Below are positions 12,785 through 64,000 of a stretch of 64,000 bases of DNA, in pieces. The translations under genes were made by a program, and so were the position numbers. The stretch spans positions 38,876,001-38,940,000 of the forward strand of contig OZ076409.1 in NCBI GenBank assembly GCA_964187785.1. Direction: 5' to 3'. This DNA comes from Amphiscolops sp. MND2022 (taxonomy: Eukaryota). Within the stretch, counting starts at the first letter, position 1. Each line of letters opens with the position of its first letter. The notes under the pieces are model-generated. The model saw only the letters and a program-made list of their open reading frames with translations, was not told where the DNA came from and made no database searches.

Positions 12785-12882
12785 TTACAATTAGTACAAA
12801 ATTTGCACATTTTTTCAAAACCAATTTCAATCAATTTCAAATTTAAATTGTGTAACATTACTTAGATGGGCCGTAAGCCGGA

Positions 12883-22366: not shown

Positions 22367-22473
<107 letters not shown>

Positions 22474-24867: not shown

Positions 24868-24925
<58 letters not shown>

Positions 24926-25474
24926 GATCATCGGAGATCCATCGTAGTCCTAAAGTATCTCGGGAGTGTACACTGAGTCTCCAAAACACCCAAAACCCTA
25001 TGTACCAGAAATCTCACGGAAAATTTATTAGGTTTTTTTTCGAACTCCCTATTTTTTATCCCGCCAATAAATTACAAATTTTAATGGAATTCCACAAGCA
25101 AAAAAACAGGCGGTTCCCATCAAATCTCAAAAAATGCCATTTTGAAGATCCTAGACTACTTGTATAATTTTGGACTAATCGGAGACTCATTGTACAACAA
25201 CACTTTCGACTAAAGTCGCAACTTTTCTTCAGCGTCTACTTTTAATTTTCCCCTCAAAGGAAGTGCTAGCACGTGTGAACGTGTATAGTTACTTTGAGTC
25301 AAATAATATTAGCAGGTGTGAAAATTTCGAGTCTTTTTCTATTTCAGAGACGCTGTGTACACTTATTAAATTATTGACAGGTGTCATTTTCTCTTACAGC
25401 TTCCTACTGATTAGTCGGTTTAAAATTTTGAACGAAAAATTGTTTTCTGGTTATAGTTGTTCCAATACATTACC

Positions 25475-27320: not shown

Positions 27321-27361
<41 letters not shown>

Positions 27362-27903
27362 GGAGATCCATCGTAGTCCTAAAGTATCTCGGGAGTGTAC
27401 ACTGAGTCTCCAAAACACCCAAAACCCTATGTACCAGAAATCTCACGGAAAATTTATTAGGTTTTTTTTCGAACTCCCTATTTTTGATCCCGCCAATAAA
27501 TTACAAATTTTAATGGAATTCCACAAGCAAAAAAACAGGCGGTTCCCATCAAATCTCAAAAAATGCCATTTTGAAGATCCTAGACTACTTGTATAATTTT
27601 GGACTAATCGGAGACTCATTGTACAACAACACTTTCGACTAAAGTCGCAACTTTTCTTCAGCGTCTACTTTTAATTTTCCCCTCAAAGGAAGTGCTAGCA
27701 CGTGTGAACGTGTATAGTTACTTTGAGTCAAATAATATTGGCAGGTGTGAAAATTTCGAGTCTTTTTCTATTTCAGAGACGCTGTGTACACTTATTAAAT
27801 TATTGACAGGTGTCATTTTCTCTTACAGCTTCCTACTGATTAGTCGGTTTAAAATTTTGAACGAAAAATTGTTTTCTGGTTATAGTTGTTCCAATACATT
27901 ACC

Positions 27904-28560
27904 ATGAGCGAAGAAGAGACATTACAACCAACAGTTATTGGTATTTTGGGGAATGATACCTCGGAAATGATCGATCGACAACTAGCTGAAATGTCAACTT
28001 TTGACCTGAATACCACCTCAGATCTCGGGGTACAACTCTCCCCTGCCGCTGATCTTCCGGCGGCAACTTCTACACAGGTTGAAGTTCCTCTAGAAGAAGA
28101 ACCAACCCATGGGCAGGCCAATTTGACTTCCAAACGGCGAAAAATTCACAAAAAAACATCGAAGGAAGCAGTACGTGACTGTTCAATTTGCCGCAAAAAA
28201 GTCGCAAAAATAGGACAGCACCTTGACAAAGTGCATAGAAACCTTCTACCAGAGCACCGGAAGTTCCTGATGTCGTTCTATTCTACTAAAAACGCCCGCG
28301 GTCCAGTTTCACAGTGTGTCAATTGCCCTTTGATGATGACGAATCCCAGGAGACACAATAATGATTTTCCTCGACACATCATCCTGAAGGTCAGAAATAA
28401 GGAATCAGATGAAGAATTCCCACCCCAGATACGGGAGTTGTCAGAAAGAAATGATTTAGGGCCTAAATCTGCTGAATTGTTGGAGGAGTATTCCAAAAAA
28501 GGACTTACTTGCCATCAGACATTGATAATCAGAGACGCTGTGTGCAGTATCGAAAATTAA
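27904..28560 (+). CDS. Zinc-finger ORF, unit 3
   Basis: Near-identical to unit 2. Confidence 0.55.
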   Translation: MSEEETLQPTVIGILGNDTSEMIDRQLAEMSTFDLNTTSDLGVQLSPAADLPAATSTQVEVPLEEEPTHGQANLTSKRRKIHKKTSKEAVRDCSICRKKVAKIGQHLDKVHRNLLPEHRKFLMSFYSTKNARGPVSQCVNCPLMMTNPRRHNNDFPRHIILKVRNKESDEEFPPQIRELSERNDLGPKSAELLEEYSKKGLTCHQTLIIRDAVCSIEN

Positions 28561-29750
28561 ACCGAAGAGGACTATATGGATACCCCGTCATAACCGGACC
28601 CCAATGATGCACAAATACCTCAGCATGAACTAGAAGGTCTCAGCCCCTTATGTTCGAGGACAATTGAAGACGATGACGCATATATAACAGACCCTTTGAA
28701 TACATCCCCGTCCGAGAATACACTTGGGACTTTGGTTACAGCACCTCAAAGAGGTGTTTGTGCTAGCACAAACTCGAATTCTTGGTTGTCATTTTGTAGC
28801 ACTTTTTCCCCCAGTTCAGTTAAAACTAGAACACGAATAATAACAGTTCCTGGAAGGTTTGTCAAAACAGAAACTCGAGTGAATCCTATTTTGAAGAATT
28901 GCACTGAAGAATGCGAATGTTCAAGGGCCCACGAGATCCACTGCATGCAAGCATAATTCGTTTTTTTTTGGTCTCCTGAGCAAAGTAGATGGCAAATTGT
29001 CCAAATCAGAGATTAGGAACCTCATGCTGCCAATGAAAATGAATTTGAAGGACCAAAAAGCTGTGCTCACCAAAGTGTACTGACAATAAAATAACTTTTG
29101 CTAGCATTTGGACCTTTAAACTATTAGTTCCGTCCAACCAAAACTTTATTCAAACTTTCATTTAATGTTACGGATTGGTTTTGCATTCATTCCAATGTTC
29201 AAGTCTTGGTATTTGTTGATATAACTGAAGAAACATTCCCATGTTTCTCTTTTTTTGATGTAAACCCAGGATCTCTAATTTTCCTAGCTGGTACACAGCG
29301 TCTCGATTTTTTAAACTCAAAACCATAAACGAAAGGTATCTCGAAACTGACGTTGTACGTGGCGAATACGTTCCCTAGGCGAACTTTAAATTCATGGTTG
29401 GACTGTTGATACAACCAACTTTTGCACCGTACTTGAAGTCTCCGATTTTCATTTTGCTGTACACAGAGTACTACATTTTCACAAATTTTGTACGCCGAGT
29501 CTCCATTTTTTGCATTTTCAAGCTGATTACTCCGTTTTTTAAACGGCTCTCAAATTTCTCCTAAAACTCGTCGTAGCAACGTCAGATTTCGTCTGTGGGT
29601 CAAAAAGTAAGTTTACTAGAATAGCCGAACATAAAAAACGATAATCGTTTGCTATTTTTTGTAACAAAACCAAGGAAAAGCACCTGAAAATTGGGACCCT
29701 GTACATACATTCTCTAATGATCGAGGGCCGATACACAGCGTCTATAATGG

Positions 29751-29782
<32 letters not shown>

Positions 29783-30324
29783 GGAGATCCATCGTAGTCC
29801 TAAAGTATCTCGGGAGTGTACACTGAGTCTCCAAAACACCCAAAACCCTATGTACCAGAAATCTCACGGAAAATTTATTAGGTTTTTTTTCGAACTCCCT
29901 ATTTTTGATCCCGCCAATAAATTACAAATTTTAATGGAATTCCACAAGCAAAAAAACAGGCGGTTCCCATCAAATCTCAAAAAATGCCATTTTGAAGATC
30001 CTAGACTACTTGTATAATTTTGGACTAATCGGAGACTCATTGTACAACAACACTTTCGACTAAAGTCGCAACTTTTCTTCAGCGTCTACTTTTAATTTTC
30101 CCCTCAAAGGAAGTGCTAGCACGTGTGAACGTGTATAGTTACTTTGAGTCAAATAATATTGGCAGGTGTGAAAATTTCGAGTCTTTTTCTATTTCAGAGA
30201 CGCTGTGTACACTTATTAAATTATTGACAGGTGTCATTTTCTCTTACAGCTTCCTACTGATTAGTCGGTTTAAAATTTTGAACGAAAAATTGTTTTCTGG
30301 TTATAGTTGTTCCAATACATTACC

Positions 30325-30981
30325 ATGAGCGAAGAAGAGACATCACAACCAACAGTTATTGGTATTTTGGGGAATGATACCTCGGAAATGATCGATCGAC
30401 AACTAGCTGAAATGTCAACTTTTGACCTGAATACCACCTCAGATCTCGGGGTACAACTCTCCCCTGCCGCTGATCTTCCGGCGGCAACTTCTACACAGGT
30501 TGAAGTTCCTCTAGAAGAAGAACCAACCCATGGGCAGGCCAATTTGACTTCCAAACGGCGAAAAATTCACAAAAAAACATCGAAGGAAGCAGTACGTGAC
30601 TGTTCAATTTGCCGCAAAAAAGTCGCAAAAATAGGACAGCACCTTGACAAAGTGCATAGAAACCTTCTACCAGAGCACCGGAAGTTCCTGATGTCGTTCT
30701 ATTCTACTAAAAACGCCCGCAGTCCAGTTTCACAGTGTGTCAATTGCCCTTTGAGGATGACGAATCCCAGGAGACACAATAATGATTTTCCTCGACACAT
30801 CATCCTGAAGGTCAGAAATAAGGAATCAGATGAAGAATTCCCACCCCAGATACGGGAGTTGTCAGAAAGAAATGATTTAGGGCCTAAATCTGCTGAATTG
30901 TTGGAGGAGTATTCCAAAAAAGGACTTACTTGCCATCAGACATTGATAATCAGAGACGCTGTGTGCAGTATCGAAAATTAA
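30325..30981 (+). CDS. Zinc-finger ORF, unit 4
   Basis: Near-identical to unit 2. Confidence 0.55.
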   Translation: MSEEETSQPTVIGILGNDTSEMIDRQLAEMSTFDLNTTSDLGVQLSPAADLPAATSTQVEVPLEEEPTHGQANLTSKRRKIHKKTSKEAVRDCSICRKKVAKIGQHLDKVHRNLLPEHRKFLMSFYSTKNARSPVSQCVNCPLRMTNPRRHNNDFPRHIILKVRNKESDEEFPPQIRELSERNDLGPKSAELLEEYSKKGLTCHQTLIIRDAVCSIEN

Positions 30982-32171
30982 ACCGAAGAGGACTATATGG
31001 ATACCCCGTCATAACCGGACCCCAATGATGCACAAATACCTCAGCATGAACTAGAAGGTCTCAGCCCCTTATGTTCGAGGACAATTGAAGACGATGACGC
31101 ATATATAACAGACCCTTTGAATACATCCCCGTCCGAGAATACACTTGGGACTTTGGTTACAGCACCTCAAAGAGGTGTTTGTGCTAGCACAAACTCGAAT
31201 TCTTGGTTGTCATTTTGTAGCACTTTTTCCCCCAGTTCAGTTAAAACTAGAACACGAATAATAACAGTTCCTGGAAGGTTTGTCAAAACAGAAACTCGAG
31301 TGAATCCTATTTTGAAGAATTGCACTGAAGAATGCGAATGTTCAAGGGCCCACGAGATCCACTGCATGCAAGCATAATTCGTTTTTTTTTGGTCTCCTGA
31401 GCAAAGTAGATGGCAAATTGTCCAAATCAGAGATTAGGAACCTCATGCTGCCAATGAAAATGAATTTGAAGGACCAAAAAGCTGTGCTCACCAAAGTGTA
31501 CTGACAATAAAATAACTTTTGCTAGCATTTGGACCTTTAAACTATTAGTTCCGTCCAACCAAAACTTTATTCAAACTTTCATTTAATGTTACGGATTGGT
31601 TTTGCATTCATTCCAATGTTCAAGTCTTGGTATTTGTTGATATAACTGAAGAAACATTCCCATGTTTCTCTTTTTTTGATGTAAACCCAGGATCTCTAAT
31701 TTTCCTAGCTGGTACACAGCGTCTCGATTTTTTAAACTCAAAACCATAAACGAAAGGTATCTCGAAACTGACGTTGTACGTGGCGAATACGTTCCCTAGG
31801 CGAACTTTAAATTCATGGTTGGACTGTTGATACAACCAACTTTTGCACCGTACTTGAAGTCTCCGATTTTCATTTTGCTGTACACAGAGTACTACATTTT
31901 CACAAATTTTGTACGCCGAGTCTCCATTTTTTGCATTTTCAAGCTGATTACTCCGTTTTTTAAACGGCTCTCAAATTTCTCCTAAAACTCGTCGTAGCAA
32001 CGTCAGATTTCGTCTGTGGGTCAAAAAGTAAGTTTACTAGAATAGCCGAACATAAAAAACGATAATCGTTTGCTATTTTTTGTAACAAAACCAAGGAAAA
32101 GCACCTGAAAATTGGGACCCTGTACATACATTCTCTAATGATCGAGGGCCGATACACAGCGTCTATAATGG

Positions 32172-32214
<43 letters not shown>

Positions 32215-32784
32215 TATCATCATCATCATCATCATGATCATCGGAGATCCATCGTAGTCCTAAAGTTTTCCCGGAGTGTACACTGAGTCTCCAAAACACC
32301 CAAAACCCTATGTACCAGAAATCTCACGGAAAATTTTATATGTTTTTTTTCGAACTCCCTACATTTGATCCCGCCAATAAATTAAAAATTTCAACAGTAC
32401 TCCACAAGCAAAAAAACAGGCGGTTCCCATCAAAGCTCAAAAAATGACATTTTGAATATCCTAGACTACTTGTAAAATTTTGGACTAATCGGAGATTCAT
32501 TGTACAACAACACTTTCGACTAAAGTCGCAACTTTTCTTCAGCGTCTACTTTTAATTTTCCCCTCAAAGGAAGTGCTAGCACGTGCGAACGAGTATAGTT
32601 ACTTTGAGTCAAATAATATTAGCAGGTGTGAAAATTTCGAGTCTTTTTCTATTTCAGAGCCGCTGTGTACACTTATTAAATTATTGACAGGTGTCATTTT
32701 CTCTTACAGCTTCCTACTGATTAGTCGGTCTAAAATTTTGAACGAAAAATTGTTTTCTGGTTATAGTTGTTCCAATACATTAGC

Positions 32785-33438
32785 ATGAGCGAAGAAGAGA
32801 CATTACAACCAATAGTTATTGGTATTTTGGGGAATGATACCTCGGAAATGATCGATCGACAACTAGCTGAAATGTCAACTTTTGACCTGAATACCACCTC
32901 AGATCTCGGGGTACAACTCTCCCCTGCCGCTGATCTTCCGGCGGCAACTTCTACACAGGTTGAAATTCCTCTAGAAGAACCAACCCATGGGCAGGCCAAT
33001 TTGACTTCCAAACGGCGAAAAATTCACAAAAAAACATTGAAGGAATCAGTACGTGACTGTTCAATTTGCCGCAAAAAAGTCGCAAAAATAGGACAGCACC
33101 TTGACAAAGTGCATAGAAACCTTCTACCAGAGCACCGGAAGTTCCTGATGTCGTTCTATTCTACTAAAAACGCCCGCGGTCCAGTTTCACAGTGTGTCAA
33201 TTGCCCTTTGAGGATGACGAATCCCAGGAGACACAATAATGATTTTCCTCGACACATCATCCTGAAGGTCAGAAATAAGGAATCAGATGAAGAATTCCCA
33301 CCCCAGATACGGGAGTTGTCAGAAAGAAATGATTTAGGGCCTAAATCTGCTGAATTGTTGGAGGAGTATTCCAAAAAAGGACTTACTTGCCATCAGACAT
33401 TGATAATCAGAGACGCTGTGTGCAGTATCGAAAATTAA
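32785..33438 (+). CDS. Zinc-finger ORF, unit 5
   Basis: As unit 2 with one in-frame codon deletion and a few substitutions. Confidence 0.55.
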   Translation: MSEEETLQPIVIGILGNDTSEMIDRQLAEMSTFDLNTTSDLGVQLSPAADLPAATSTQVEIPLEEPTHGQANLTSKRRKIHKKTLKESVRDCSICRKKVAKIGQHLDKVHRNLLPEHRKFLMSFYSTKNARGPVSQCVNCPLRMTNPRRHNNDFPRHIILKVRNKESDEEFPPQIRELSERNDLGPKSAELLEEYSKKGLTCHQTLIIRDAVCSIEN

Positions 33439-34629
33439 ACCGAAGAGGACTATATGGATACCCCGTCATAACCGGACCCCAATGATGCGCAAATACCTCA
33501 GCATGAACTAGAAGGTCTCAGCCCCTTATGTTCGAGGACAATTGAAGACGATGACGCATATATAACAGACCCTTTGAATACATCCCCGTCAGAGAATACA
33601 CTTGGGACTTTGGTTACAGCACCTCAAACAGGTGTTTGTGCTAACACAAACTCGAATTCTTGGTTGTCAACTTGTAGCACTTTTTCCCCCAGTTCAGTTA
33701 AAACTAGAACACGAATAATAACAGTTCCTGGAAGGTTTGTCAAAACAGAAACTCGAGTGAATCCTATTTTGAAGAATTGCACTGAAGAATGCGAATGTTC
33801 AAGGGCCCACGAGATCCACTGCATGCAAGCATAATTCGTTTTTTTTTGGTCTCCTGAGCAAAGTAGATGGCAAATTGTCCAAATCAGAGATTAGGAACCT
33901 CATGCTGCCAATGAAAATGAATTTGAAGGACCAAAAAGCTGTGCTCACCAAAGTGTACTGACAATAAAATAACTTTTGCTAGCATTTGGACCTTTAAACT
34001 ATTAGTTCCGTCCAACCAAAACTTTATTCAAACTTTCATTTAATGTTACGGATTGGTTTTGCATTCATTCCAGTGTTCAAGTCTTGGTATTTGTTGATAT
34101 AACTGAAGAAACATTCCCATGTTTCTCTTTTTTTGATGTAAACCCAGGATCTCTAATTTTCCTAGCTGGTACACAGCGTCTCGATTTTTTAAACTCAAAA
34201 CCATAAACGAAAGGTATCTCGAAACTGACGTTGTACGTGGCGAATACGTTCCCTAGGCGAACTTTAAATTCATGGTTGGACTGTTGATACAACCAACTTT
34301 TGCACCGTACTTGAAGTCTCCGATTTTCATTTTGCTGTACACAGAGTACTACATTTTCACAAATTTTGTACGCCGAGTCTCCATTTTTTGCATTTTCAAG
34401 CTGATTACTCCGTTTTTTAAACGGCTCTCAAATTTCTCCTGAAACTCGTCGTAGCAACGTCAGATTCCGTCTGTGGGTCAAAAATTAAGTTTACTAGAAT
34501 AGCCGAACATAAAAAACGATAATCGTTTGCTATTTTTTGTAACAAAACCAAGGAAAAGCACCTGAAAATTGGGACCCTGTACATACATTCTCTAATGATC
34601 GAGGGCCGATACACAGCGTCTATAATGGT

Positions 34630-48057: not shown

Positions 48058-48358
48058 GTTACTGTGCGTGACTGGAAAGCAGACTTCATTGGTTCGAGTT
48101 CCGCGCTGATCTAAAATTTTTGATCAAAAGAAACGGTGTTTGTGAACCATTTTCAGTTTTGGATGGTCTATTTTCAGTAAGAATTCCAGTTAAAGCGCAG
48201 ATATTACTTTGCGAAAGTTGGCTATAGATTGTCCAATATATTTCAATGCCATTTGATTGAATTTTTTGTACATTTAATGACCGACAGGATTGTGTTCAAC
48301 ACTAAAAGTTACATTTCAACAATTTTATGGCTATGCTAATTTTTAATTTTTTCATAAG

Positions 48359-50001
48359 TGTCGCAGGCTGCCGCCTGTGACGGGATTTATTATCAAATTC
48401 CCCAAGAATATGCAGAATCCAACCCCCCACCCGGAGTATTGCCAATTTGAAAAACTTACGGTAAAACAATTCAAAACTATGCTTAATCTTAGCCCAACAT
48501 TACTATTTTATATTTTTACCGTGATGGACCTGTGGTCCACACGGCTACATCTCAAATTTCATTTTTACCTTACGAGAATATACTTAATTGATGAGTTCTG
48601 TGCCTGTTTGATTGATTAGATGAACTTGTAATGTAATCAATTGAATGTAAAGTAATGCTTGCTGAATAGTAGGAAACGTGTTCAAATGAACGCTTGTTGA
48701 CGTCCGGCGTACGTACCGGCCTTATTTAAATGAACCAATCAGAGTGCTGTACATTCTTATCATTATTATTGCTGTAGCCACGTGGACCGAAGGTCTACCG
48801 CGGTGCTATTAGCTGCCAATTAGTCGATGCTATTATGTGTATTGTAGCCGCGCGTACTGTCAGTCCGCGACGGTTACTACTATTTAGAGCAGTAATTTAA
48901 GTAAACTGATGTAGTTACTCGGACCTTAAGTCTATTAGTACAGTATTAATGGATGATTTGTTTGTTATGATACTTGTCAGACATGAAATATTAAAGTAAA
49001 CATGTAACTATTTAAAGCAAAATGTGCTTATTTTAGATCTAATATCACACTTACAGACCATTGGTCAATCCCTCCATTTTACCCTGATGCTATATTTAGC
49101 TGCAATTTGATGTAGTAATATTGACGTCATGTACCAAAATATAACCCGGGAGCTATTATTAGTAACATGACCAGCATAATTTTGCGGGTCATGCAGTGTG
49201 AAGTATATATAGCGGGGACCCGTAGGCCCCAGGATGATTCTTTCTGATTTCACGAAACTATCAACTACATACACTTCTGATTCAATTTGTTACGCTACGA
49301 GACTTATTGGAATAATAGACCATTAGTCAATTCATTATTAATCTCCAAAGTTAGTTCAATGCCATCAACAAGGAGACAGAAAGCCAAAGAGAGACGCTCT
49401 AGGCATTTAGACATAATGTCTGATGTAGAAAATGTTGATATAATGCTTGGTAGTTACTCTAGAGATGATGAAGAGAATAACATGAGCGAAAGTGAAATGA
49501 ATTTGGGCTCAGGGTCCAGTAGACCACAACAAAGTTCGAATGTTATAGGAGAGGATTTCAGGTCATTACTTAATACCAATAGCAGAGAAAATAGTGAAAT
49601 CACTATTGAGACCACAAGGTTGATAAATGAAGAAATTTCTAATCAAGTGACTAGAAAACTCAATGAAATCAAAACTAGTTTGAATTCCCAAATTCAGGAC
49701 GCGATTACAGTCGCAATAACCCGCACGGTGCTTCCTTCTATCCAAAACACACTAGAAACGCAGGTGAGGTCGAATTTCACCGTGGTGGACTGGGGGTCTA
49801 ACGGGCCACATCCCAGCCCAATGCCAACAGATTCCACCATAAAGGACAGAAGGTCCAGTGGGCTACACCGGAACCCCGAAGTAGGAAATTCACAAAAAAC
49901 GTGGGAAAATCGTCCCAGAACGTGCTTTGCACAGGAAAATAGTAGACTGAGGTCTAGAGAGAGTTCAACAGACTCTATGAATAGCGAACAAAATCGCGAC
50001 A
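48359..50001 (+). repeat. 5' LTR (1643 bp)
   Basis: TGTCGC...GCGACA terminal inverted repeat, immediately followed by TGG PBS; same boundaries as the TSD-flanked solo LTR at 10946-12784. Confidence 0.85.
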
Positions 50002-51125
50002 TGGTGACAGGAGCCAACCCTACCCCACATATGGTTCCTGAGTTTCTCACTGGACGTCCCATGCAATCCGGAGATCCCCTGCAACGTCAAAATTCCAACA
50101 ATAACGAGTCTCAGGTTACAATCCCCCAGGTCCCTGAGACTACAGGACCAACTACTCCTTCCGATCCCATTAACCGCCTTGCAGAAGTATTAGTTGGCAT
50201 GAACAACCGTCCATCAGCACAAACATTGATGGTACGCCCAGTCAGCACAACCACGCTGACGTTCGACGGCAAATCCGAGAAATTCGAACTCTTCGAAGAT
50301 CTCTTTCACACTATGATAAAAATGCAACCTGATATGACTGAAACAATGAAAATTAACTATTTTCATTCATTGTTACGAAAGAATGCGTTACAAACCTTTC
50401 GCAACATTAACACGGCAAACAGGCAAACTCTGGAGGACATCCTGGCAGTATTTCGCCGAAAATACGTTAAACCTGAGTCCCAGGCGACAGCCAAACACAA
50501 ATGGCACAGACTGGTGTTTGACCCAAACACCATGAAATTGCCAGACCTCCTTGAGAAATTAAATCAAGGAGCTGAAAAAGCGTTTGGCGAGAACGCCCAA
50601 GCCATGATCGATAGCCTCCTCTATGCCAAGTTGCCGTCAAAATTGAAACGCTCCGTCAATATGGCCAGACTCGAAAACGCGACCTACGAGGAAATTGTTA
50701 CCCATCTGGAACGAGAGCTTGAACTCAATGGACTTGAGGAGGGGGGTGACATCCCAGTACCAACATTGTCCACTGCCCCTACAGCAACACGACCAGGAAC
50801 TGGCCTTCTTTCCTCTGGCATTGATCCAAACATTACTTGCAACTATTGCAAGAAACCCGGACATGTCAAAGACGATTGCCGCAAACTCAAACGAAAGGAG
50901 GAACAACGCCGCAATGAAGGGCAGGATACCAAGAAAGAGTATCCCAAATGTCCAACTTGCGACAAAACAAACCACCCGGCGGAACGATGTTGGAAAGGCG
51001 CTGGAGCCCACCTCAAGCCCAAAAACCTCAAACTGGCGGACACTACAGCCGCAGATTCGTCCACCAGCCAAGAAGACGCAAACAACAAGCAAACAACCTC
51101 AATCTTAAAGAACCCAAAAAACTAG
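49359..51125 (+). CDS. gag: Gag with two CCHC zinc knuckles
   Basis: TFDGKSEKFELFEDLF capsid-like region; CNYCKKPGHVKDDC, CPTCDKTNHPAERC. Confidence 0.92.
   Translation: MPSTRRQKAKERRSRHLDIMSDVENVDIMLGSYSRDDEENNMSESEMNLGSGSSRPQQSSNVIGEDFRSLLNTNSRENSEITIETTRLINEEISNQVTRKLNEIKTSLNSQIQDAITVAITRTVLPSIQNTLETQVRSNFTVVDWGSNGPHPSPMPTDSTIKDRRSSGLHRNPEVGNSQKTWENRPRTCFAQENSRLRSRESSTDSMNSEQNRDMVTGANPTPHMVPEFLTGRPMQSGDPLQRQNSNNNESQVTIPQVPETTGPTTPSDPINRLAEVLVGMNNRPSAQTLMVRPVSTTTLTFDGKSEKFELFEDLFHTMIKMQPDMTETMKINYFHSLLRKNALQTFRNINTANRQTLEDILAVFRRKYVKPESQATAKHKWHRLVFDPNTMKLPDLLEKLNQGAEKAFGENAQAMIDSLLYAKLPSKLKRSVNMARLENATYEEIVTHLERELELNGLEEGGDIPVPTLSTAPTATRPGTGLLSSGIDPNITCNYCKKPGHVKDDCRKLKRKEEQRRNEGQDTKKEYPKCPTCDKTNHPAERCWKGAGAHLKPKNLKLADTTAADSSTSQEDANNKQTTSILKNPKN
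50002..50013 (+). promoter_or_regulatory. Primer-binding site TGGTGACAGGAG (tRNA-Leu-like, inferred)
   Basis: Directly follows the LTR-terminal CA; one mismatch from TGGTGTCAGGAG. Confidence 0.65.
51116..51122 (+). promoter_or_regulatory. Candidate -1 ribosomal frameshift heptamer A AAA AAC
   Basis: In gag frame immediately before TAG; pol is in the -1 frame and open across it. Confidence 0.6.
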
Positions 51126-54100
51126 ATATGCCACGACTCCAAATAAATGAAAAACTCCGTGTCCGACAATACATAATATCGGACCCTTCAAACGTCTATT
51201 ACACAGAATACTATACAACTCTTAAAGAAACATCATCAGCTGACTGGCAGCAGCAGATGAGAACTCCCCCTACTACTAGCACCACCGTGGACCTTATGTA
51301 CAACAGACTACAAACCGATACTAATACTATACGACTTATACCTCTCATTGATGACTACAACCCATACTATCCAGACCCTGACTATGGATTTGACCCCTAC
51401 TGGGACGCTAATTGCTACAATCAACATCATCTATACTTCTACCGAAATTTTAACAAACCAAATGCGAATATAGAACCGGACTCCCTTGCAGTTGACCAAG
51501 CCTTGAGTATGGTCCTTGCGAAAGCCCGAGTGGACCCATGGCAATATAACGTACCACCAACACGTCAAATGACTCACACCGAGCCTGATGACGAATTTCA
51601 CCGTGCAGGACCACAGGTCTCTCTGACTACAACAGTTGCCGCGCGTTTTGTGAACACACTAGTCACCAGAACTGGAGAACCAGACTATGTACCGCTGACA
51701 ACCAATCTTGGCCTCAAATACAAGCGACGAATGCTCTATTTTCCGATGGATTTTGGCGAACTAACTTTAGACGGCCTTGTAGACACGGGTGCCCTATCTA
51801 GTGCAATCCCAGAAACTGATCTACGTAAAATCCGATTATTAGCCCCTCAGTCTATTGTCAAAGAGGTCCCAGCACCCAACTTCCAAATTATGGTTGCTAA
51901 TGGACAGCTGGAGACTCCGAAGAGCACAGTCGAACTGAAATTTGAAGTCGGCGACATAGAATTTCACGAGATATTCATTGTTATGGAAAAACTCACCAGT
52001 CCATTGATTGGTCTTTCGTTCCTTCAAAGGAACAATACCATCCTGGACATGCGACAGGGTGTCCTGAACTTCCCTTTCTTTTCAATGCAGTTGAAAACTG
52101 CTGATCAAAAGTACACTAACGTTCTGGAACCCATCTGTATTAGAGAGGATGCAACCATCCCCCCTAATGGCCGACAATCGGTCCTTATGGCTTCACAACT
52201 GTACGAGAACACTACAGTTACTGGGATCCTTCAACCGAGCAACAATCTTACAGATGATGGCGATATTGCCTTCTGCGCTGCTCTAGTCACGCTGACCAAT
52301 GGTCAGGTATCAGTTCATTTGAACAATTTTACCGATAGTCCGTACACCCTCAAGAGGGGTACACAGGTGGCTAATTTCACTGTCCTCACGCCAGAACAGA
52401 TGAAATATGTAAAGCCCATTGACCCGGTGACCACATGGCACCTCCTACAAGATAACCCTGGAAACGCTGCTCATTATGCAAGTAGCTTGATCAAATCTAC
52501 GAAACCTGAGGACCTCAAGGAAAACTACTGGTTTCCAACACCGGAAGACCCTGGGGACCCTCAGCACCACACGCCAATCCAGAAAAGGATTTTGTCCGAA
52601 CTTATCAACCTTCAGGAATTAGAGAAACTCAATCCTCAGGATGACCCTGAGTCCAGACGACAATTCTTATCCAATTTTGACTGGACAGACTCTATGCTCC
52701 AACCTACCGAAATAGCTCGTATAGAGGACTTACTTGTCGAGTTTCATGATATCTTTGCTAGGCATCGCTTCGACATAGGCATGAACGAGGACTTCAAGGT
52801 CAAATTGACACCGAAAGATGATTCCCCGGCCTATAGTCAGAGTTTGCCAACGCCAATAAACCTCAAGAAAGATATCCTTGTAGAGTTAGCTCTCCTACAT
52901 CGCTATGGCATCATTACAACACTCCCATTCTCCAAATACGCAAGTCCCATTTTTGCACAAAAGAAACCCAATGGCAAATTGCGACTTTTAGTTGATTTAC
53001 GTAAAATAAATAAATTGATATCGGATGATTACATCAACAAAAACCATCCAGTAAGTACGCTTACAGACGCGGCCCAACACATGGCTGGGAAAAAACTATT
53101 CTGTAAGTTGGACTGTTCGCAAGCTTACCATTGCCTACAAATGGCGGACCAAAGGTCCATTGAAATGCTTGCTTTCAACTTCGCCAGCAGAACCTTTGCA
53201 TATAGACGTCTGGCAAAAGGCCTTAGTAGAGCCTTATCGGCCTTTTCAAGCTTTATGCGAGAATATTTGGACAAGGTCATTAAAGCAGACCAATGCGCCC
53301 AATACGTCGATGATATTGGTATTGCTGCCAACAATGCCGAACAACTCATCAACAACTTGAGGGCCACATTCCAATGCATACAACAAGCCAGTCTCAAACT
53401 TACCATGCACAAATGCCATTTTGGAGCAACGGAAACTGACTTTCTAGGACGTACCATCACTCCTGCAGGAGTGAAGCCGCAGAGACCACGGGTCCAAAAT
53501 TTCCTAGAAAATACAAAATTCCCGAAATCCAAGAAAGCACTACAGCGTTACTTGGGATTTTTGAATTATTATCGAAACTACATTCCAAGACTATCAGAAA
53601 AACTAACACCGTTTTCCAAACTGCTCACTACAGATGAAAAAGTCCTAGTAACACCGGACCTATTGGAAAAATTTACCGAGATAAACAAGGCTCTTGATCG
53701 ATGTTGCGAACTGGCACTCAAACAACCCTTACCGAACAAGCAAATAGCCCTCATGACTGATGCCAGCTTTTCGGCCGCAGGGTACGCAGTTCTCATCGAA
53801 GACGATCCACTCGAGAAGTACACTTCCACGAGGAATGCTTTCGCACCAGTAGCTTATGGATCCAAGACCTTTAGTTCTACCCAACTGAAAATGTCCATCT
53901 ACGCCAAGGAATTCCTAGCAATTTTCTTTGCCTTTAAGGAATTTGGACATATCTTTTGGGGAACCCCAAAACCGGTAATCATACTTACAGACAACAAGTC
54001 CGTCACACGCTTTTTTCAAACTAAAATTATTCCGCCGACATTATGGAACGCTTGTGATTACGTGATTCAGTTCAACTTCACAATAGCACATATACCAGGC

Positions 54101-56227
54101 AAAAACAACACAGCGGCTGATTATCTGTCACGTCTAGAAATCTCTCCGAAAGAAAAATTAATCCTCAGAATCAGAGAAGATATCCCTACAACGCCAATTG
54201 AACTACACGTTCAATCGGCCGGAGTTTCGGAAGAGGAACAAATCTTTTATACCGAGGATGATGACGAGACGGAAGAACAAATTTTACAACGTAAAAAAGA
54301 CGCTAGGGCTCACCCAACGCATCAGCTACCAGACATTTCGTTCGAAAAATTTTCTAAACACAAAAGTGACTACTACAAACTTTCAACGATCCAAAAATTA
54401 TCTTACACGAACTCTATAGCAGTAGAACAAAACAACGACATCATTTTACAGCAATTGCGCCTCAAAATATTGAAAGAAAGTTATTCCGAAACTATCCTTC
54501 TGCAAGACTCCCGCTACCAACATTACTGTCGCCAGATGGACCGACTGTCCGTCATGGATGAAATTCTCACCAGACAGTATTTTGACGAAACAGGAACTGT
54601 CAAATACAATCAAATGCTATTGCCAAAAGATTCTCGTCCAAGAACTACTCGAAGCCTTACATGGCAAAGCTAATAAACACCCCGGAATATCCAAAATGCT
54701 AATAGAGATTCGCCAAAAATACTACTACCCCGGCATTGCAAAACTTGTCAAAAAATGGGTTCAAGGCTGCGAAATTTGCATAAAAGATAAACGAATTCCA
54801 AACTCATCAATCACCCGGAGTTACTTAATTTGCCCGACTGGGACTTAGGCCCTGAGGACGCAATGCAAATTGATTTGTTACCTAACCTACCTGCGAGTGG
54901 CGGATACGAGAACATCATAACTGCAATGGACGTATTTTCAAGATATCTCTTTGCTTACCCAGTCACGGACGCTTCGGCCACAAATACGGCAAAGGTCATA
55001 TCTGATATAATGACCAAGCACACCTATTTGCCCACGACTTTGATCACAGACAAAGGTACGGCCTTCACGTCCAAACTAGTGGCTGAGATTGCCCAAATCT
55101 TGGGAATCCAAATAAAATGCGCAACTACCAAACACCCACAAACAATTGGCAAATTGGAACGTACTCATGCTAGTCTCAAAACAAACCTCAAGATGGCCTC
55201 AGGGGACTACAGGCGACAGTGGCATAAATATTTGCCTTCAGCCGTATTGAACTACAATACGACTTATCACGCTACCCTAGGTTGTGAACCATCGAGAATT
55301 TTCCACGGAGGAATCCCGTATAAAATATTGGATCACAAATTGGGCCTTAACCCAAACCCGAAGGTCCTACCGACTACAGATTTTGCAGACGAATTTCAAC
55401 GCCGCACGCAGATACTACTAGATTCTACAAAGAAAAACATTATGCAATCTTATTTGAAGTACAAAGAGTATTACGACCGGAAGGCCAAAGCGGCCCCTCT
55501 GAAACAAAATGACTAATGTTTTATTCTGCAACCTATTGCTGACCACCAAGGATCAAGAATACCATTTCGAGAATACAGGTGGATTGGACCATACGTCGTA
55601 GAAAAGGTTTTGCCGAATGAAAATTATATAGTCAGAAAACTCAATTCCAATAAAACGCAAATTCTACATCGGATCAGATTGCGCAAATATGAACCGAATA
55701 CTGTCCTACAAGACGTTAGACCAGAAGGCAATTTACAACGGGATGATGAAATTGTTATTCCGCAAGACGACTTATACGTTATTACGTGGGAAACCAATTT
55801 TGGAGAATTTCCCGATTCTGCCGAAGACACCGCAATTCCTACGAACCAAGATGGCCTTCACAACTCTAGCAACACTGACACTGATCCTATGACGCAAGAA
55901 GAAATTTTCACCGACGTGGACCTTAGGTCCACCGGGCCTCACCATGAAAAGGGCGCCAACGCCCCGGACAGCAATTTCACCGGCGAGGACCTTGAGTCCA
56001 CCGGGCCACACCAAAAGGATGATTTTGTCTTGACTAAAAAAACGTACTCAGATGGCTTAAATGACTATTCTGATGACCAAAAATCATCAGGAGGGAGCGA
56101 TACTATCGTGCCCGAAGTATTAGATGATGATGACGATATGATTGTAGAAAATGAAAGCCCTAGGGGAGGAAAATATAACCTTCGTCCTAACCCCACCCCC
56201 AACTTCACTGATGAATACAGATACTAG
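51122..56227 (+). pseudogene. pol: Pol (PR, RT, RNase H, integrase with GPY motif); integrase disrupted by two frameshifts (~54631, ~54815) and a stop (55514)
   Basis: LVDTGA; LRLLVDLR, KLDCSQAYH, YVDD; MTDAS, TDNKS, AADYLSR; H-H-CEIC; QIDL, ITDKGTAF, KLER; WIGPY; KYNLRP tail. Confidence 0.93.
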
Positions 56228-56399: not shown

Positions 56400-59300
56400 C
56401 TAGTGCTTATGTGGGCTCCCACTTGTATGACTACCCCGCTCAATTGAGGAGGTTCGTGATGACGACTGCTCCTGCTGCTTGCTGGAATGGGGACTCTGAG
56501 TCTTCTTAGGTGACTTGCCGGAACTGGAACTCTGAGTCTTCTTGGGTGATTTGCTAGAACCCTGAGGATCACTATCGACGCACAAGGTGACTTTGCGCCC
56601 CACAGTAGACTGGGAGTTGATACAATCTTGAATTCCAACTCGATCGAAGTGGTTAATACCATCCCAAGGACAATAGGTGCTGCTGAGGCCCGCGTTCCCA
56701 AAGGTCATCTCTAACTCGAGGAAACGAGCGATTGATGCATCCGAAGCAAGGGTGTCCAATCCACGGACGGCATTCTTTAAATAGGACTGTATGGGTGCAA
56801 CAACATCAAACAGCATACTAGTAGGGTCATCAGTCTTGGTGGAGCCAAACCTGACTGGAACGAAAGAGTAACGAGGCTCGTCGATACAAAGGCAACTGAG
56901 GCGAAAGATTCGGGAAAGATATACCCGGGACTTCAGGGCAGGCTGTTTAGACACGAAGTCTATGGCATCAGCAATCAACAGTTTGGGCTGCTGCATCTCA
57001 GGGTGTGATCGGCGCACCTCATCAATGAAAGAAAGGTACTCCTCCATGTACAAAGATTCCTCTTCAGACTTGAATACTCCTCTGAGTCGAAAACTTGAGA
57101 AGAGGTTCTTGAAACAATAGGCAGCCTGTTCCATGGTGTCTATTAAGAGAGTCTCCAAGTCAAAGGCGCCCAACCCTTTGACGATGTCAGAGGTAAATCT
57201 GGTCAAACCAGCAGCAGCACCAAAGAGATGCGCAACATACGCCCTGGCTTGTCGGCTGAATTCCTCACGGTTGTTTGCGACTAGCTGATCCAGGCTTAGA
57301 CTGCTGTTCTTCGCATCTTTCCTCTCCTTCTCTGCCTTACGTTTGCAGCAAACATCTAGTCTGGGCGTCAGTTTGGACCTAGACACGAAGTCATCCACTG
57401 AGAGAGCTCTTGAGTCAGGGATGGTATTCGGAGGATTCATGGTAGTCAGACTCAGACGGTAGACTGCTGGGGCGGACACACCTTCGGGCTAGTTTCTGAA
57501 GGTACTGGCAAAGTTCTTTATGCACATGAAACCCTCGGTCGCGTCTGGTCTTTAAATTGAGAACGAAACTGCTAGTATCTAAATGGAAGGCACATGCACT
57601 CAAGGAAACATATAATCAGGGAAGTGTGTATGTATAACACTTACAATCGCGAACCAGACGGCAAAACAGGTCCAAGCGACAAGGGAAGAGCTCGTCATAT
57701 ACAATGGACCATTCCAGATTTTGAGGCTGAAACCATTTAGTGATCAAAGCAAATTAGACACTACGTCGCATTAGCTACACTAAAAATTATCCTTTACCTC
57801 ATTACGGACGCCTTGTTTCTCCTGTTGAGGGGCATACTTGGACAGATATCCAATGACTTTTGACCAGTTGTCCAGCAATTCCTGACAAAGAGCAGGGAGT
57901 CCACAGATATCAAGGCGACCTGTTCTGATGGCCTGCAAAGATAACCGCAAAATTAGAATGGTAGTATTAGTGTTAGAAAAACCAAACATGGAAACCTACT
58001 TAAGCTACGGATTTAAGTTTAGCAAATGGAGCCAATTACCTTAGATAGTTCTGGAGCAAGTAACACCCAGTCCAATTCAGCACTGCCGCCGAGGGAGGTC
58101 ACGAGGTAGCGTAGCACAGAAAAGAAGTCTATCCGTCCGAAGACGCTCTGGCTCTTCTTGTGCATGAGAACAGACAATTCTAGCTCTTCGAATCGTGGGG
58201 TGCTCTGCAATCCGTTTGACGTGTAGGGGCTTTGGTCCAGAAGCTGAATTGTCCTGGCACTACTACCGGTACAACTGACCAGATGAGGCTTGGTTGAAAA
58301 CACGCCCATAATGTAGGAGATTAGGCATACTTCGGCTTGAGCTTGTCCCTGCACCCGCCCAGTCCGCTTGAGGAACACTCGACAGAGCTGATCGTCGTGC
58401 CAGAACCTAACGAATGATAACAAGAACACCCCATCTGTAGCGAATTCCACAGCATATTCACCAGATGTATTGATTTGAGCCCCGATGTCTGCAATGAGCT
58501 CGAGGAACATGTGGTGGAACATGACCTAAAATACAAAAGACTGTATGACTTTGGATAAAATTAACAATGTGTACTAGAGTGGCAACAACGACTTTGAAGC
58601 ACGACTACTTACACTAATTCGTTCTTTGCCCCAGTTGAAATCAGTGAACAAGGACTGGTGGTTCACTATCACCCCGACATCGCTCCAAAAGGCTTTTAGG
58701 ACTTCTAGGTCTCCGTGAGTTGGCAGGAACTTGGCCAGCACAGACAGCTGGATACGTGCTCGATTGTCCGAAGAGGAAGACATGTAGTCCGTACCCGCCA
58801 TGTACTCATCATAGAAGGGTAATTTTTGCCCGATTTCGACAAGTGGAGCACTAATGAAATGCGGCAGCTCGAATTCCAACTCATAGGGAGACAAGAGTTT
58901 CCCATCTTTGCCTCGGACTTGGTGGATCTTGGTCTTTGTTACCGGGTCGATCCGGTATAGATATTCATAGCGCCACCTTTGATCCTTTCGCAGATGCTTT
59001 TCCGAAGAATGGTGACGCAAAACTTCCCGTGCTCCTTTCCCGTAAATGGAGATGTTGGCCTTACAAATTTGGCAATAAAATTTGTAAGGATTCCACCTTG
59101 GGTCCATTGGGCCAGAGACGAAGGTACGAGTCCACTCCATGCCCTTGAAGTAGGCCTCTTTCATTATTTTGCAGGACCTTGTGACCTTCCTACGAGTCCC
59201 TGTACCTCGAGAACTAGTAGAAAACCTGCCTTGTTGACTGCGCGAGATCTTGGTCTTATCCTTGATTGCCTCGGCCTTTAATGCAGCGAGGGTTTGGGCC

Positions 59301-60724
59301 CCAGGACTATCGACCGATGTGTCCACTCCTTCTCCTTGCAGTTCCAGATGACCTCTAGTCGCGCAATCAGCGGCTCTCGGAGGAGCAGATATTTGCTCGG
59401 CGTCAGTTCTCTCATAAGTGTAGCCAATGCTAGAGAGCTCTTCGTCACTTCTGAGAACTCCACTAGTATCACTCAGTAACCCGGGTGAAGTGCTTCTTGA
59501 CCTAAGGGACGATCGGGAACCAGCGGTAGCTGGGGTGGCCGAGGAACGTACGGGTGCCTCTAGTGATAGTCTTCTAGTCTTTTGGATGATCCTTTCCAAA
59601 GCGTCTTGCGAAGCTCCCACAGCCTCGTCTGCTACAATCTTGAGGACGCTGCTCAACTGATTCTCAGTGAAGGTGATGACCGGGTGTCCTTGAGGGAGGA
59701 CAAAAGTTTCATTCGTCTGAAAATGCTCCTTGATAAGCGCTCTGCTGCTTGACTTTAGCCCTTGTCCTCTTGAAGTTTCGGGGAGACCTACTGTAGTGAA
59801 CATGCTTTCACCGTCACTGGACTCATTGTCGTTGCGCCGAGACTTGTAGTTCAAGGCCTGTGCGATGGTTGAACCAGCAGGATTGTGAGAAGAATCGACT
59901 CCAGCCTCAGCCATAAATTCACTACTGCTACAAGTTGTGGCCCTGAGGTCCTTGCGGCTGATTTCGACGCTTGTATCAGTCTCACTATTTTCATTGCTAG
60001 CGTCTCGGAAAGGAGTTGGAGCGCGTTGCTTGGCTGGGGGATGGCTCTCATGAAGAGAGGAGCTTCCAATACGGGGACGTTTCTGTGAACTTTGAGTTCG
60101 TTCAGGTTCTGATAGTTGGGAAGACCCTGGCGGAGGACCGAGAAATGAGACCTTTTGGCCGGAGGGACCTTGGCCTTTTGGGCTGAACTGAAAGCTCGTA
60201 GAAGGGATTAATGTAAGTGGTTCACTCTCACTTGCTTTGGAATTGTCACCTTTGCCTAAACGATCTTCATGGTCTCGCATGTCCTTCTCCAAACTTTGGA
60301 TTTTGCGATCGAGATAGGCCTGGATGCTTTCCCCAGAACTGCTGTTACCAGATGCGAGAGGATTGACGAAGGACGGAGAATAGTCTGGGGAAGGTTGCTT
60401 CGGAGTACGACCTCGAACAGGTGACCCAATCGACGCAGCATCTTTTACAGACGACCCTTGCTCTGTTGAACTTTGAGTCCCGCTTCCTTCAATGATCTCT
60501 ATACCAGTAGGAAGGCATCCGGTGGACGTAAGAGGGGACATTTCGTCTGTTCTGTTAACGACTGTGGGACTGATGGTCTCTTGGACTACACTACTTCGCT
60601 GGTCTAAATCATCATCTCCAGAGCCATTGGGGCTTTTGTCCGTTTGGGCTGGTTGGCCGTTTGATTCATTTCCTAAACGGAAAGAAATAAATTCGAGCGG
60701 TTCACTTCCTGCAAAAGAATCCAT
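56400..60724 (-). CDS. Spliced antisense accessory gene, ~1296 aa: Ser-rich N-terminus, zinc finger, degenerate hAT-transposase-like body. Exons 60724-58613, 58525-58040, 57932-57798, 57726-57645, 57578-57482, 57378-56400
   Basis: Five GT-AG introns (87, 107, 71, 66, 103 bp; phases 0,0,0,1,2) join into one stop-free frame; FYCQICKANISI...RHHSSEKH finger. Confidence 0.8.
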
Positions 60725-61864
60725 CTTGCCGCATTTAAAACTTCCGGAAGTAAAGTTCAGTTAATTCAACCTGTGTTGAAAACATTTCACGATGGAGGAA
60801 GTACTTGTAGTCGAACCTAAACCTTGATCAAGTTTAGTTAGACAAAATAAAAGAACCAACCTGATGTCATTTCCATGATGGGAAGGCAGAATTCTCGCTC
60901 AGTCGGTCGGTTGAAAATACTGGAATGGTATTTGGACCAAGGGTATGGATATTGTCTAATGAAGACTTGAGGATCAGCAATAACCAAAATGTCCACAGGG
61001 CTGTATGAAGTTCAGCAGTAAGGTTTCTCGTTAATTGGAATTCAAATTGGATAACAATCAATTCAAATGTTGCAAATGTCAGGAGTGAGGACTACTGGAT
61101 TACAGACACAGGGACTGTATTAAATCAGATTAACACTACTGATACTTACTAACTTACCTGGACTAATTGTCAAGTTTCATAAAATGATTAGAACCATAAG
61201 ACGATTAATCGTTTACTACTTTGTTCGGACGTCGTGGCCTACTAATTAGCTTTTTCATCTATTATTACCTACTACTTATATCATCTACTACTTGTACAAT
61301 TATTTTGCTATTATACCTTACATCATGGATTGCAACTGCCAGTGATATTCATGCCTTCATTCATTTCGAAAGATTACTACACTATTTAGATTAGTATTAG
61401 ATTAGAAAATCGCCATTTTATTCATTTTCCATCAATTTTCATCATCAATTCATCAACGCTTTCCGATTGGCTAATCCAATTGATGTAGCCGAGCGGACCG
61501 AAGGTCTTTGATGATGGATTTATTTACTGACAGTTTACTTGAGTTAGCACCTAACTCACTCATTAACTGCTGTTAAGTGTTTGAGTAAACAACTTACAAG
61601 TCCCTCAAGGACCAATTAACATGAAATTTACCTTAGTTGTTACTTCTAGAAATTCCGTAAAATTACAAATATGGAATGTTTGGCAAGAATTTAGGGAAGA
61701 TGAAAAACAGTTTCCCCGCTGGGGATTCCCGCGAAAAGGATGAAACCGCTAGTCCGAATAACTAGAAGAAAATCATTCAGTCAAGTTTCAAAAGCCAAAC
61801 CAGTTGATTACTAGCAAACCTCAAAATTGCCAAGAAAATCCTTCTTAGAAAATATAAATCTCAG

Positions 61865-62686
61865 ATGGAAACTCAATTCACAATTGATGAATTGGCCAAT
61901 TCTCTGTTCAGCCCGGCCTACTTCTCTTCAGAGGAAGAGGAGGATATGGAAGTAGACATTCTGTCTGTGTCAGCGCAAGGGACCGAACGTCACTCGGACG
62001 ACAGTGACATAGAAGTCATCGCCTGTTATCGCCACGTGCCTATTGCCCCAACTGAACAGAATGCCACACGCAAGATGACTACGGACCTCTCTAGCTGTGT
62101 GGACGACGGGTTGCCCGAATTCCCTTGGGACGACTTTTCGGACTTCTGGCCTGAAGATTTCGAAACAGCAATAGTCGAATTAGGAACTGGCCCAGACGCA
62201 ATCGGCAGGGAGAACAATTGTCCAATCAACCAATGCTCAAAACTTGTCCCTCAGACGGATACGCCGCTTTCTCCACCTTTGTGCGAGCAAGGGCCCAGCT
62301 ATGGTCGTTATGATTACGCTGGACCAAATGTGACAGATTTTGCTGTGCCCGTAAACTCCCACATCCAGGGAATTAGTGTGCGAATGGGGGCGAACTGTGG
62401 TGAACCGAACGCCGCAGCTTATGGAGATTGCATTGTGCGTGGCAGATCATACGAGCAAATCCGCGAGACTGCAGTCCTGACGTACCTTGGGTCGACTTCA
62501 AGACGAGGCGAGACGCATTACGATCAACAGAGGCGGAGAGATGCCTACCTAGCTGAAATGAATCAAGGGACAGTACTTTTGGTCCCTAGGGGAGTGTCGC
62601 AGGCTGCCGCCTGTGACGGGATTTATTATCAAATTCCCCAAGAATATGCAGAATCCAACCCCCCACCCGGAGTATTGCCAATTTGA
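61865..62686 (+). CDS. 273-aa acidic accessory protein of unknown function; last 92 bp lie in the 3' LTR
   Basis: ATG-initiated ORF, GC-richer than flanks; spans PPT and LTR start; EEEEDMEVDIL and SDDSDIEVI SIM-like motifs. Confidence 0.72.
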   Translation: METQFTIDELANSLFSPAYFSSEEEEDMEVDILSVSAQGTERHSDDSDIEVIACYRHVPIAPTEQNATRKMTTDLSSCVDDGLPEFPWDDFSDFWPEDFETAIVELGTGPDAIGRENNCPINQCSKLVPQTDTPLSPPLCEQGPSYGRYDYAGPNVTDFAVPVNSHIQGISVRMGANCGEPNAAAYGDCIVRGRSYEQIRETAVLTYLGSTSRRGETHYDQQRRRDAYLAEMNQGTVLLVPRGVSQAAACDGIYYQIPQEYAESNPPPGVLPI

Positions 62687-64000
62687 AAAACTTACGGTAA
62701 AACAATTCAAAACTATGCTTAATCTTAGCCCAACAGTACTATTTTATATTTTTACCGTGATGGACCTGTGGTCCACACGGCTACATCTCAAATTTCATTT
62801 TTACCTTACGAGAATATACTTAATTGATGAGTTCTGTGCCTGTTTGATTGATTAGATGAATTTGTAATGTAATCAATTGAATGTAAAGTAATGCTTGCTG
62901 AATAGTAGGAAACGTGTTCAAATGAACGCTTGTTGACGTCCGGCGTACGTACCGGCCTTATTTAAATGAACCAATCAGAGTGCTGTACATTCTTATCATT
63001 ATTATTGCTGTAGCCACGTGGACCGAAGGTCTACCGCGGTGTTATTAGCTGCCAATTAGTCGATGCTATTATGTGTATTGTAGCCGCGCGTACTGTCAGT
63101 CCGCGACAGTTACTACTATTTAGAGCAGTAATTTAAGTAAACTGATGTAGTTACTCGGACCTTAAGTCTATTAGTACAGTATTAATGGATGATTTGTTTG
63201 TTATGATACTTGTCAGACATGAAATATTAAAGTAAACATGTAACTATTTAAAGCAAAATGTGCTTATTTTAGATCTAATATCACACTTACAGACCATTGG
63301 TCAATCCCTCCATTTTACCCTGATGCTATATTTAGCTGCAATTTGATGTAGTAATATTGACGTCATGTACCAAAATATAATCGGGAGCTATTATTAGTAA
63401 CATGACCAGCATAATTTTGCGGGTCATGCAGTGTGAAGTATATATAGCGGGGACCGGTAGGCCCCAGGATGATTCTTTCTGATTTCACGAAACTATCAAC
63501 TACATACACTTCTGATTCAATTTGTTACGCTACGAGACTTATTGGAATAATAGACCATTAGTCAATTCATTATTAATCTCCAAAGTTAGTTCAATGCCCT
63601 CAACAAGGAGACAGAAAGCCAAAGAGAGACGCTCTAGGCAATTAGACATAATGTCTGATGTAGAAAATGTTGATATAATGCTTGGTAGTTACTCTAGAGA
63701 TGATGAAGAGAATAACATGAGCGAAAGTGAAATGAATTTGGGCTCAGGGTCCAGTAGACCACAACAAAGTTCGAATGTTATAGGAGAGGATTTCAGGTCA
63801 TTACTTAATACCAATAGCAGAGAAAATAGTGAAATCACTATTGAGACCACAAGGTTGATAAATGAAGAAATTTCTAATCAAGTGACTAGAAAACTCAATG
63901 AAATCAAAACTAGTTTGAATTCCCAAATTCAGGACGCGATTACAGTCGCAATAACACGCACGGTGCTTCCTTCTATCCAAAACACACTAGAAACGCAGGT
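62595..64000 (+). repeat. 3' LTR (partial, window end), again containing the gag start (ATG 63594)
   Basis: Direct repeat of 48359-49765. Confidence 0.95.

Follow-up and report, generated by a model that had tools for sequence, protein, structure and literature searches.

The window, by which we mean the whole 64,000-nucleotide stretch of DNA analysed here, contains a complete Ty3/gypsy LTR retrotransposon (48359-64236), whose final 236 bp lie beyond the window end. The element is young; its LTRs (5' LTR, 48359-50001, plus strand, 1643 bp; 3' LTR, 62595-64000 within the window, plus strand, 1642 bp in all) differ by 12 mismatches and one gap and are 99.3% identical. They have TG...CA ends, with 6-bp terminal inverted ends in the 5' LTR, and the element is bounded by a 5-bp TSD, the left copy of which lies at 48354-48358 and the right copy beyond the window end, directly behind the 3' LTR. 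A likely PBS (50002-50015, plus strand) starts with TGG immediately 3' of the 5' LTR, and a short PPT (62588-62594, plus strand) adjoins the 3' LTR, which completes the features expected of an LTR element.

Pfam matches follow the Ty3/gypsy order, with gag preceding protease, a weak dUTPase-like stretch, RT, RNase H and integrase. The gag frame (49359-51125, plus strand), with DUF1759 and a CCHC knuckle, has its ATG within the LTR; about 214 codons are LTR-borne (49359-50001; 63594-64000), and the frame reads on through the PBS. The remaining domains are in pol (50918-56227, plus strand), where the dUTPase-like stretch (52130-52390) lies between protease and RT and has a Pfam E-value of 0.0047, below the cut-off. 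The pol frame of the window copy is interrupted by a frameshift near 54630 and a stop at 55514-55516; many sister copies have open pol frames of near 1700 aa. A second extra ORF (61865-62686, plus strand) crosses the PPT into the 3' LTR. It is acidic, conserved and without a Pfam match, and its Cys-rich C-terminus forms a C-x3-N-x6-C-x2-C tail, in which one of the Cys is an Arg in the window copy; we take this tail to be reminiscent of a RanBP2-type finger.

Elsewhere in the window there is a Bel/Pao retrotransposon with long open frames (691-7079, minus strand), which served as a motif control only, and an array of five tandem 2.4-kb units (22400-34500), 93-100% alike, each with an open frame of 223-224 codons that has no Pfam match and with an ATC microsatellite. 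Bel/Pao elements are metazoan, and the presence of one here suggests an animal host.

The Ty3/gypsy element carries a further gene in antisense, between its pol and 3' LTR. The lineage with this gene is very abundant and very successful in its 1.07-Gb host genome, where a search with exon 2 of the gene returned 6,568 first-look candidates, 150 of which were scored and which do not represent a copy number.

A spliced and conserved antisense gene

The first-pass annotation had proposed an antisense protein at 56600-59200, located within a retrotransposon. All peptides that it quoted are found on the minus strand at that place, the gene behind them is real and does sit inside an LTR element, also in other families; its extent, however, is larger. 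The minus-strand ORFs are the exons of a single spliced gene that runs from 60724 to 56400 and has five exons and about 1330 codons. Its introns measure 87, 107, 71 and 66 nt, and all four have GT-AG boundaries and matching phases.

Exon 1 (58613-60724, minus strand) encodes a conserved N-terminal peptide, a variable Ser-rich region of about 500 aa, a zinc finger and a helical region. Exon 2 (58040-58525, minus strand) contains a predicted RNase H-like core (about 58181-58459), exon 3 (57798-57932, minus strand) has 45 codons, and exon 4 (57645-57726, minus strand) has 82 nt and a phase-1 donor. Exon 5 (56400-57578, minus strand) is predicted to be all-helical. The N-terminal peptide (60724-60680) and a helical motif in the middle of the variable region (about 59760-59610) are conserved across clades, while the roughly 500 residues around them diverge; judged by this pattern, the two are candidate interaction motifs. 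Conserved non-coding blocks lie directly upstream of the antisense ATG (60725-60900, minus strand), two of them, 12 and 18 columns long, being without variation across families (7 of 7), and are likely to form the promoter. Invariant words among them (60725-60800) resemble ETS and YY1 sites.

We scored the homologous junctions in 54 fetched loci, some of which overlap one and the same element. Among the 216 junctions, 176 were GT-AG, 7 were of other types, 31 were unscorable and 2 were precise intron losses (intron 3 in L107 and intron 4 in L052). Three further candidates were dropped: an apparent loss of intron 1 in L032 turned out to be due to an internal duplication, L108 did not count as a precise loss when its junctions were recounted, and an intron in the 5' UTR near 61157 was not clearly conserved. 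Intron 1 is missing in two database proteins, P0035 and P0249. Since the best match of P0035 in this genome reaches at most 46%, the antisense-protein family exists elsewhere too. Homologue searches yielded family members without a Pfam domain; those with a stated source derive from ENA assemblies. An HMMER search of representatives covered the best 150 of 457 matches. In 17 of 20 divergent loci the gene is placed in antisense just after integrase. Exon 5 is frameshifted in the window copy by the loss of one base near 57424 and of another near 57436, deletions that are absent from 19 of 19 sister copies. As these deletions are private and pol is interrupted as well, the window copy is broken, yet the family is not.

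Selection and exchange of modules

In many of the families found in this genome, the antisense gene evolves under purifying selection. Between families, dN/dS was 0.06-0.07 for L027/L025 and 0.02-0.05 for L107/L108, with dS near 1-2 in both pairs; in six further pairs dS was saturated and dN was 0.07-0.27. Young copies gave values from 0.15 to 1.75, calculated from few sites. Families that share the conserved introns and the purifying selection have only 25-45% identity, and the antisense gene diverges much faster than pol. Core proteins of transposable elements have been described as evolving more slowly than accessory ones (PMC13547354).

Pol, antisense gene and LTR have been shuffled among families, and deep clades match between the integrase and exon-2 trees (31 loci). 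We rejected a strict tie of the antisense allele to the LTR type, having found that the window copy has LTR identities of 91-93% with a family to which its antisense exons are 65-76% identical.

Identity of the antisense protein

The first-pass annotation had read the protein as a catalytically dead hAT transposase, with the hAT order of domains. The predicted order, in which a finger and a helical region precede an RNase H core, a long helical insertion and a C-terminal part, agrees with this in part, but the ER-FS motif and the C-terminal dimerisation domain (PF05699) were not detected; the latter matched none of 17 exon-5 members, whereas true hATs of this genome match it strongly. The finger (58994-59074, minus strand) is BED-like and has the spacing C-x2-C-x16-H-x5-H, which corrects the x17 given before. 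Every aligned copy (16 of 16) has C36, H53 and H59, and at least 90% have C33; the finger is modelled as strands plus a helix, and Pfam zf-BED was found in the finger region of 1 of 16 members (E-value 0.021).

Sequence comparisons gave no hAT match. There was no Pfam hAT family in 25 exon-2 and 17 exon-5 members or in the single ORFs, no match in sequence and profile searches of the PDB with the antisense protein, and, in the ESM Atlas, leads under 0.9 only in one search and none in another. With hhalign, comparisons to the Ac-like and THAP12/ZMYM1-like hATs, the two groups that served as references, stayed at shuffle level both per exon and for an X-linked profile. In a positive control with whole proteins, the comparison separated hAT subgroups well (99.8%), but the control at exon size was weak: 3 of 5 true hAT pieces scored below 50% and, with the catalytic residues masked, 3 of 5 scored below 5%. 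A DUF4371 search of the genome was without match, and so was its control.

Structure comparisons used models of two natural pieces of the protein, taken from sister copies. The model of the N-terminal half has a core of strand-strand-strand-helix-strand-helix, that is, a predicted RNase H-like fold. In Foldseek, the comparison proposed by the first-pass annotation, Hermes took ranks 1-6 of 350,542 chains (E-value 0.0055, probability 0.87, 368 columns). In BFVD, a viral hAT-family model had the second-longest alignment among the 50 matches listed (310 columns), but ranked only 20th. VIA returned a generic RNase H fold, with Hermes absent from the top 50 rows. On exon 5, the Foldseek and VIA searches gave nothing useful; 149 residues of the exon-5 model align at low score, and collinearly, to Hermes 364-574, most other rows being helix pairs of 45-60 residues. 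Because the two halves independently point to consecutive parts of Hermes, we consider the protein, on the strength of its predicted structure, to be probably of hAT ancestry. It has a predicted hAT-like body without a detectable catalytic triad and falls outside the hAT family proper.

The catalytic residues of Hermes are D180, D248 and E572 (PMC2533014). At the equivalent positions, which were inferred from secondary structure and motif without residue-level superposition, the first (end of strand 1, exon-2 position 29) is Asp in 1 of 81 rows and Glu in 48 of 81, and the second (end of strand 4) is Asp in 0 of 99; near the equivalent of E572 (exon-5 positions 219-258), no column is more than 50% acidic. 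These counts agree with the loss of catalytic motifs suspected earlier, and from its residues the protein is likely catalytically dead. Two residues before the first position, strand 1 has a Glu in 72 of 83 rows (exon-2 position 27), so that some metal binding is possible. As also noted before, the gene itself lacks the ends of a DNA transposon: none of the 25 inverted-repeat pairs listed for 40000-64000 flanks it, and there is no 8-bp TSD at the gene, the only TSD being the 5-bp one of the whole LTR element.

A spaced palindrome enriched in the element

In an unbiased scan of all spaced palindromes, counting one LTR and the internal region, GAC-N5-GTC occurred 36 times versus 2.6 times in shuffles (33 versus 2.6 for a longer pattern across the whole window). 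The 36 copies, which we regard as candidate binding sites, lie between 48527 and 61991 in the LTR, pol, the antisense gene, the intergenic region and the second ORF, with 8 sites in the 5' LTR, which also holds the start of gag. Enrichment is confined to a spacer of 5. In flanking DNA, 10 kb contained 1 copy and 28 kb contained 2; the counts for two LTR elements unrelated to this one were 0 and 3.

In synonymous-codon shuffles (n=100), the observed count was above all shuffles in pol (10 sites) and in exon 1 (6 sites), and it did not exceed all 100 in two smaller regions. Synonymous positions within sites were identical in 168 of 196 cases (12 same-motif loci, which are non-independent) versus 63-71% outside. 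In a clade with another motif, synonymous identity at the sites was 27 of 60 versus 40-41% outside, and L101 had no excess of synonymous conservation within sites.

We disfavour reading the motif as an RNA hairpin, because other stems with 5-nt loops are near expectation (259 versus 228) and the variant CCG-N5-GGC has no strand bias. GAC-N5-GTT, which also bears on this reading, is raised 2-3 fold on both strands.

A likely solo LTR of a divergent family (10946-12785, minus strand) lies inside a 361-bp inverted duplication and has 14 GAC-N5-GTC in 1.8 kb; the 2.6-kb unit around it also has 9 GTC-N5-GAC.

Turnover of motif and finger helix

The motif differs between clades. GTC-N5-GAC is added in the L090 clade and a strand-biased GAC-N5-GGC in the L107 clade, while the L093/L096 clade has CCG-N5-GGC 12-19 times and GAC-N5-GTC only 1-3 times. 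Short cognate-type motifs that are enriched in an element and change between families are the pattern of VANC/TnpA-type systems (see below). A nested gypsy family (L157-L158), whose antisense gene has 22-33% identity and whose 1525-bp LTRs are identical, has its own repeated word containing CCG-N5-TGC, partly in near-identical repeats.

The residue preceding a conserved E-x2-RH in the finger helix tracks the class of DNA motif. Of the 33 loci compared, one was intermediate and one unreadable; every locus with an Arg (19 of 19) has 13-26 sites per 10 kb, and every lineage variant without it (12 of 12) has 0-3. That finger helix and motif change together is suggestive only, as this reflects about one to three events that are independent, and the element's other proteins changed on those branches too. 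Since the palindrome changes between lineages along with the antisense protein, the protein likely binds its own element.

The same gene in a DNA transposon

The same five-exon gene occurs in a 37.6-kb EnSpm-like DNA transposon, of which copies with 98-99% identity are present on three chromosomes (C1, C9 and C3; loci L129-L132, L135-L136, L145-L159 and L100, with L089 a related copy of the gene). This element has CCCCAG ends, TIRs of about 39 bp, TSDs of 2-3 bp, a DUF1258/Transposase_21 ORF and a weak SET match. In 3 of 3 copies a remnant of a gypsy integrase tail stands beside the gene, so that capture was likely from gypsy into the DNA transposon. The scanned parts of the 37.6-kb element contained no strong dyad. 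On C3, the copy sits within a Polinton-like element that has integrase and A32 ATPase matches, and itself holds the nested gypsy described above. Gene transfer between elements of class II and class I is seen here, apparently both ways.

Proposed function and alternatives

The antisense gene is real and conserved, and is likely a transposase-derived regulator gene with predicted cognate sites. As to its function, we put forward, as a proposal that falls a little short of probable, that the likely dead hAT-derived transposase binds GAC-N5-GTC and keeps its own element transcribed against silencing. The gene would be transcribed from the conserved blocks just upstream of its ATG, and its product would dimerise and bind the palindromes via its fingers, as the palindromic sites and hAT biology would suggest. 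The long variable N-terminus may recruit or exclude host chromatin factors, and by analogy with VANC and TnpA the effect would be activation or anti-silencing. The introns would survive retrotransposition because, in antisense orientation, they are reversed in the packaged sense RNA and hence not spliced; the rare precise losses may stem from recombination with spliced antisense RNA. More tentatively still, the whole could amount to an animal LTR lineage that domesticated an entire DNA transposase as a sequence-specific anti-silencing factor and spread the palindromic sites of that factor through its own genome, with finger and site re-coded between clades and the module recaptured by the 37-kb EnSpm-like DNA transposon.

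The palindromes could instead be bound by a host factor, Gag, integrase or the second ORF, in which case the antisense protein might tether the integration complex to chromatin or act as a scaffold. We judge this unlikely, though it has to be taken seriously: the deep branches on which the element's proteins change are common to all of them, the sites also lie in pol and LTR, places where factors for packaging or integration could work, there is the conserved Cys-rich tail of the second ORF, and the gene persists in the giant TIR element despite the lack of a strong dyad found there. A single host factor, however, is insufficient for a motif that varies by element clade within one host genome and is absent from unrelated LTR elements; the near-expected number of 5-nt-loop stems speaks against an RNA signal, and the antisense protein alone has a predicted finger whose helix tracks the motif. 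If the same sites are bound by the antisense protein, its origin might still lie in another RNase H-fold enzyme, such as a Mutator, P, Kolobok or EnSpm transposase or an integrase, as the negative Pfam and hhalign results and the generic fold in VIA-align would allow. This seems rather improbable to us, given that both halves independently select Hermes, in the correct order, and that hhalign at exon size is weak even on true hATs.

Activation itself may be questioned, since antisense transcription can silence (PMC7264820) and the many sites in pol would fit a coating repressor as well as an activator. That the antisense protein or RNA represses its own element, and so limits its copy number or times its transposition to the germ line, is nonetheless improbable: the lineage is very successful, as its thousands of first-look candidates and many open pol frames attest, its fast divergence and module swapping fit a conflict with the host, and the known analogues activate. 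Largely refuted already, and very improbable, are the readings of the gene as what a nested hAT insertion passively left behind or as a transposase that is active. The acidic residues kept in strand 1 would suit the latter, but neither the second Asp nor the third acid seems to be present, the gene has neither TIRs nor an 8-bp TSD around it, and purifying selection is strong and introns are conserved across families that have diverged widely. The reading that we favour is that of an element-encoded, sequence-specific activator or anti-silencing factor.

Comparison with known systems

The antisense protein resembles hATs (Hermes, PDB 8EDG/4D1Q, and the THAP12/ZMYM1-like group) in the predicted order of its parts, from the finger to the C-terminal part, and Hermes is its best Foldseek match. 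It differs from them in having no detectable DDE triad, CxxH, ER-FS, TIRs or sequence-profile match, in its additional N-terminal region of about 500 aa and in travelling within an LTR element.

Antisense extra ORFs are known from plant Ty3/gypsy elements, where their origin and function are described as unknown (PMC7264820, PMC11963269, PMC8220671). [quoted passage not shown] The TRP28 domain (PF04195) has no Pfam match in our gene, and the word 'intron' is absent from the main text of the Retand paper, whereas the present gene combines candidate target sites with four conserved introns and a predicted RNase H core. The present element offers a likely origin for an antisense extra ORF, namely a transposase of the other class. 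In bdelloid LTR elements, the captured ORF3 (env, GDSL esterase or DEDDy exonuclease) provides an animal parallel, with a dUTPase and an extra ORF common to unrelated element types (PMC5408684). Its products are enzymes or envelopes (PMC5408684), in contrast to the predicted transposase-derived DNA binder described here. Among the titles and abstracts listed by literature searches of partial coverage, none described a hAT-derived antisense gene in an LTR element.

The closest functional analogues that we consider are VANC of VANDAL Mutator-like elements and TnpA of Spm/CACTA. VANC proteins co-evolve with their targets (PMC5735166), TnpA is transposase-derived, and transposases activate cognate copies (bioRxiv 10.64898/2026.08.24.746577). 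In both, as here by our reading, the element encodes a non-catalytic gene, with short cognate motifs that differ between related families (PMC5735166; bioRxiv 10.64898/2026.08.24.746577). Both belong to plant DNA transposons, for which binding and demethylation have been shown, whereas our gene belongs to an LTR retrotransposon of a likely animal and its sites are candidates. It also differs in that its protein keeps the whole transposase-like body and in that the dyads are dispersed, coding DNA included. With a target word predicted for each clade, the function can be tested directly in binding assays, and the gene may help to explain how its lineage came to number thousands of copies in a genome of 1.07 Gb. 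Should the more tentative reading above be true, a retrotransposon would here house an arms-race system like that of VANC, in which a natural code links finger and site.
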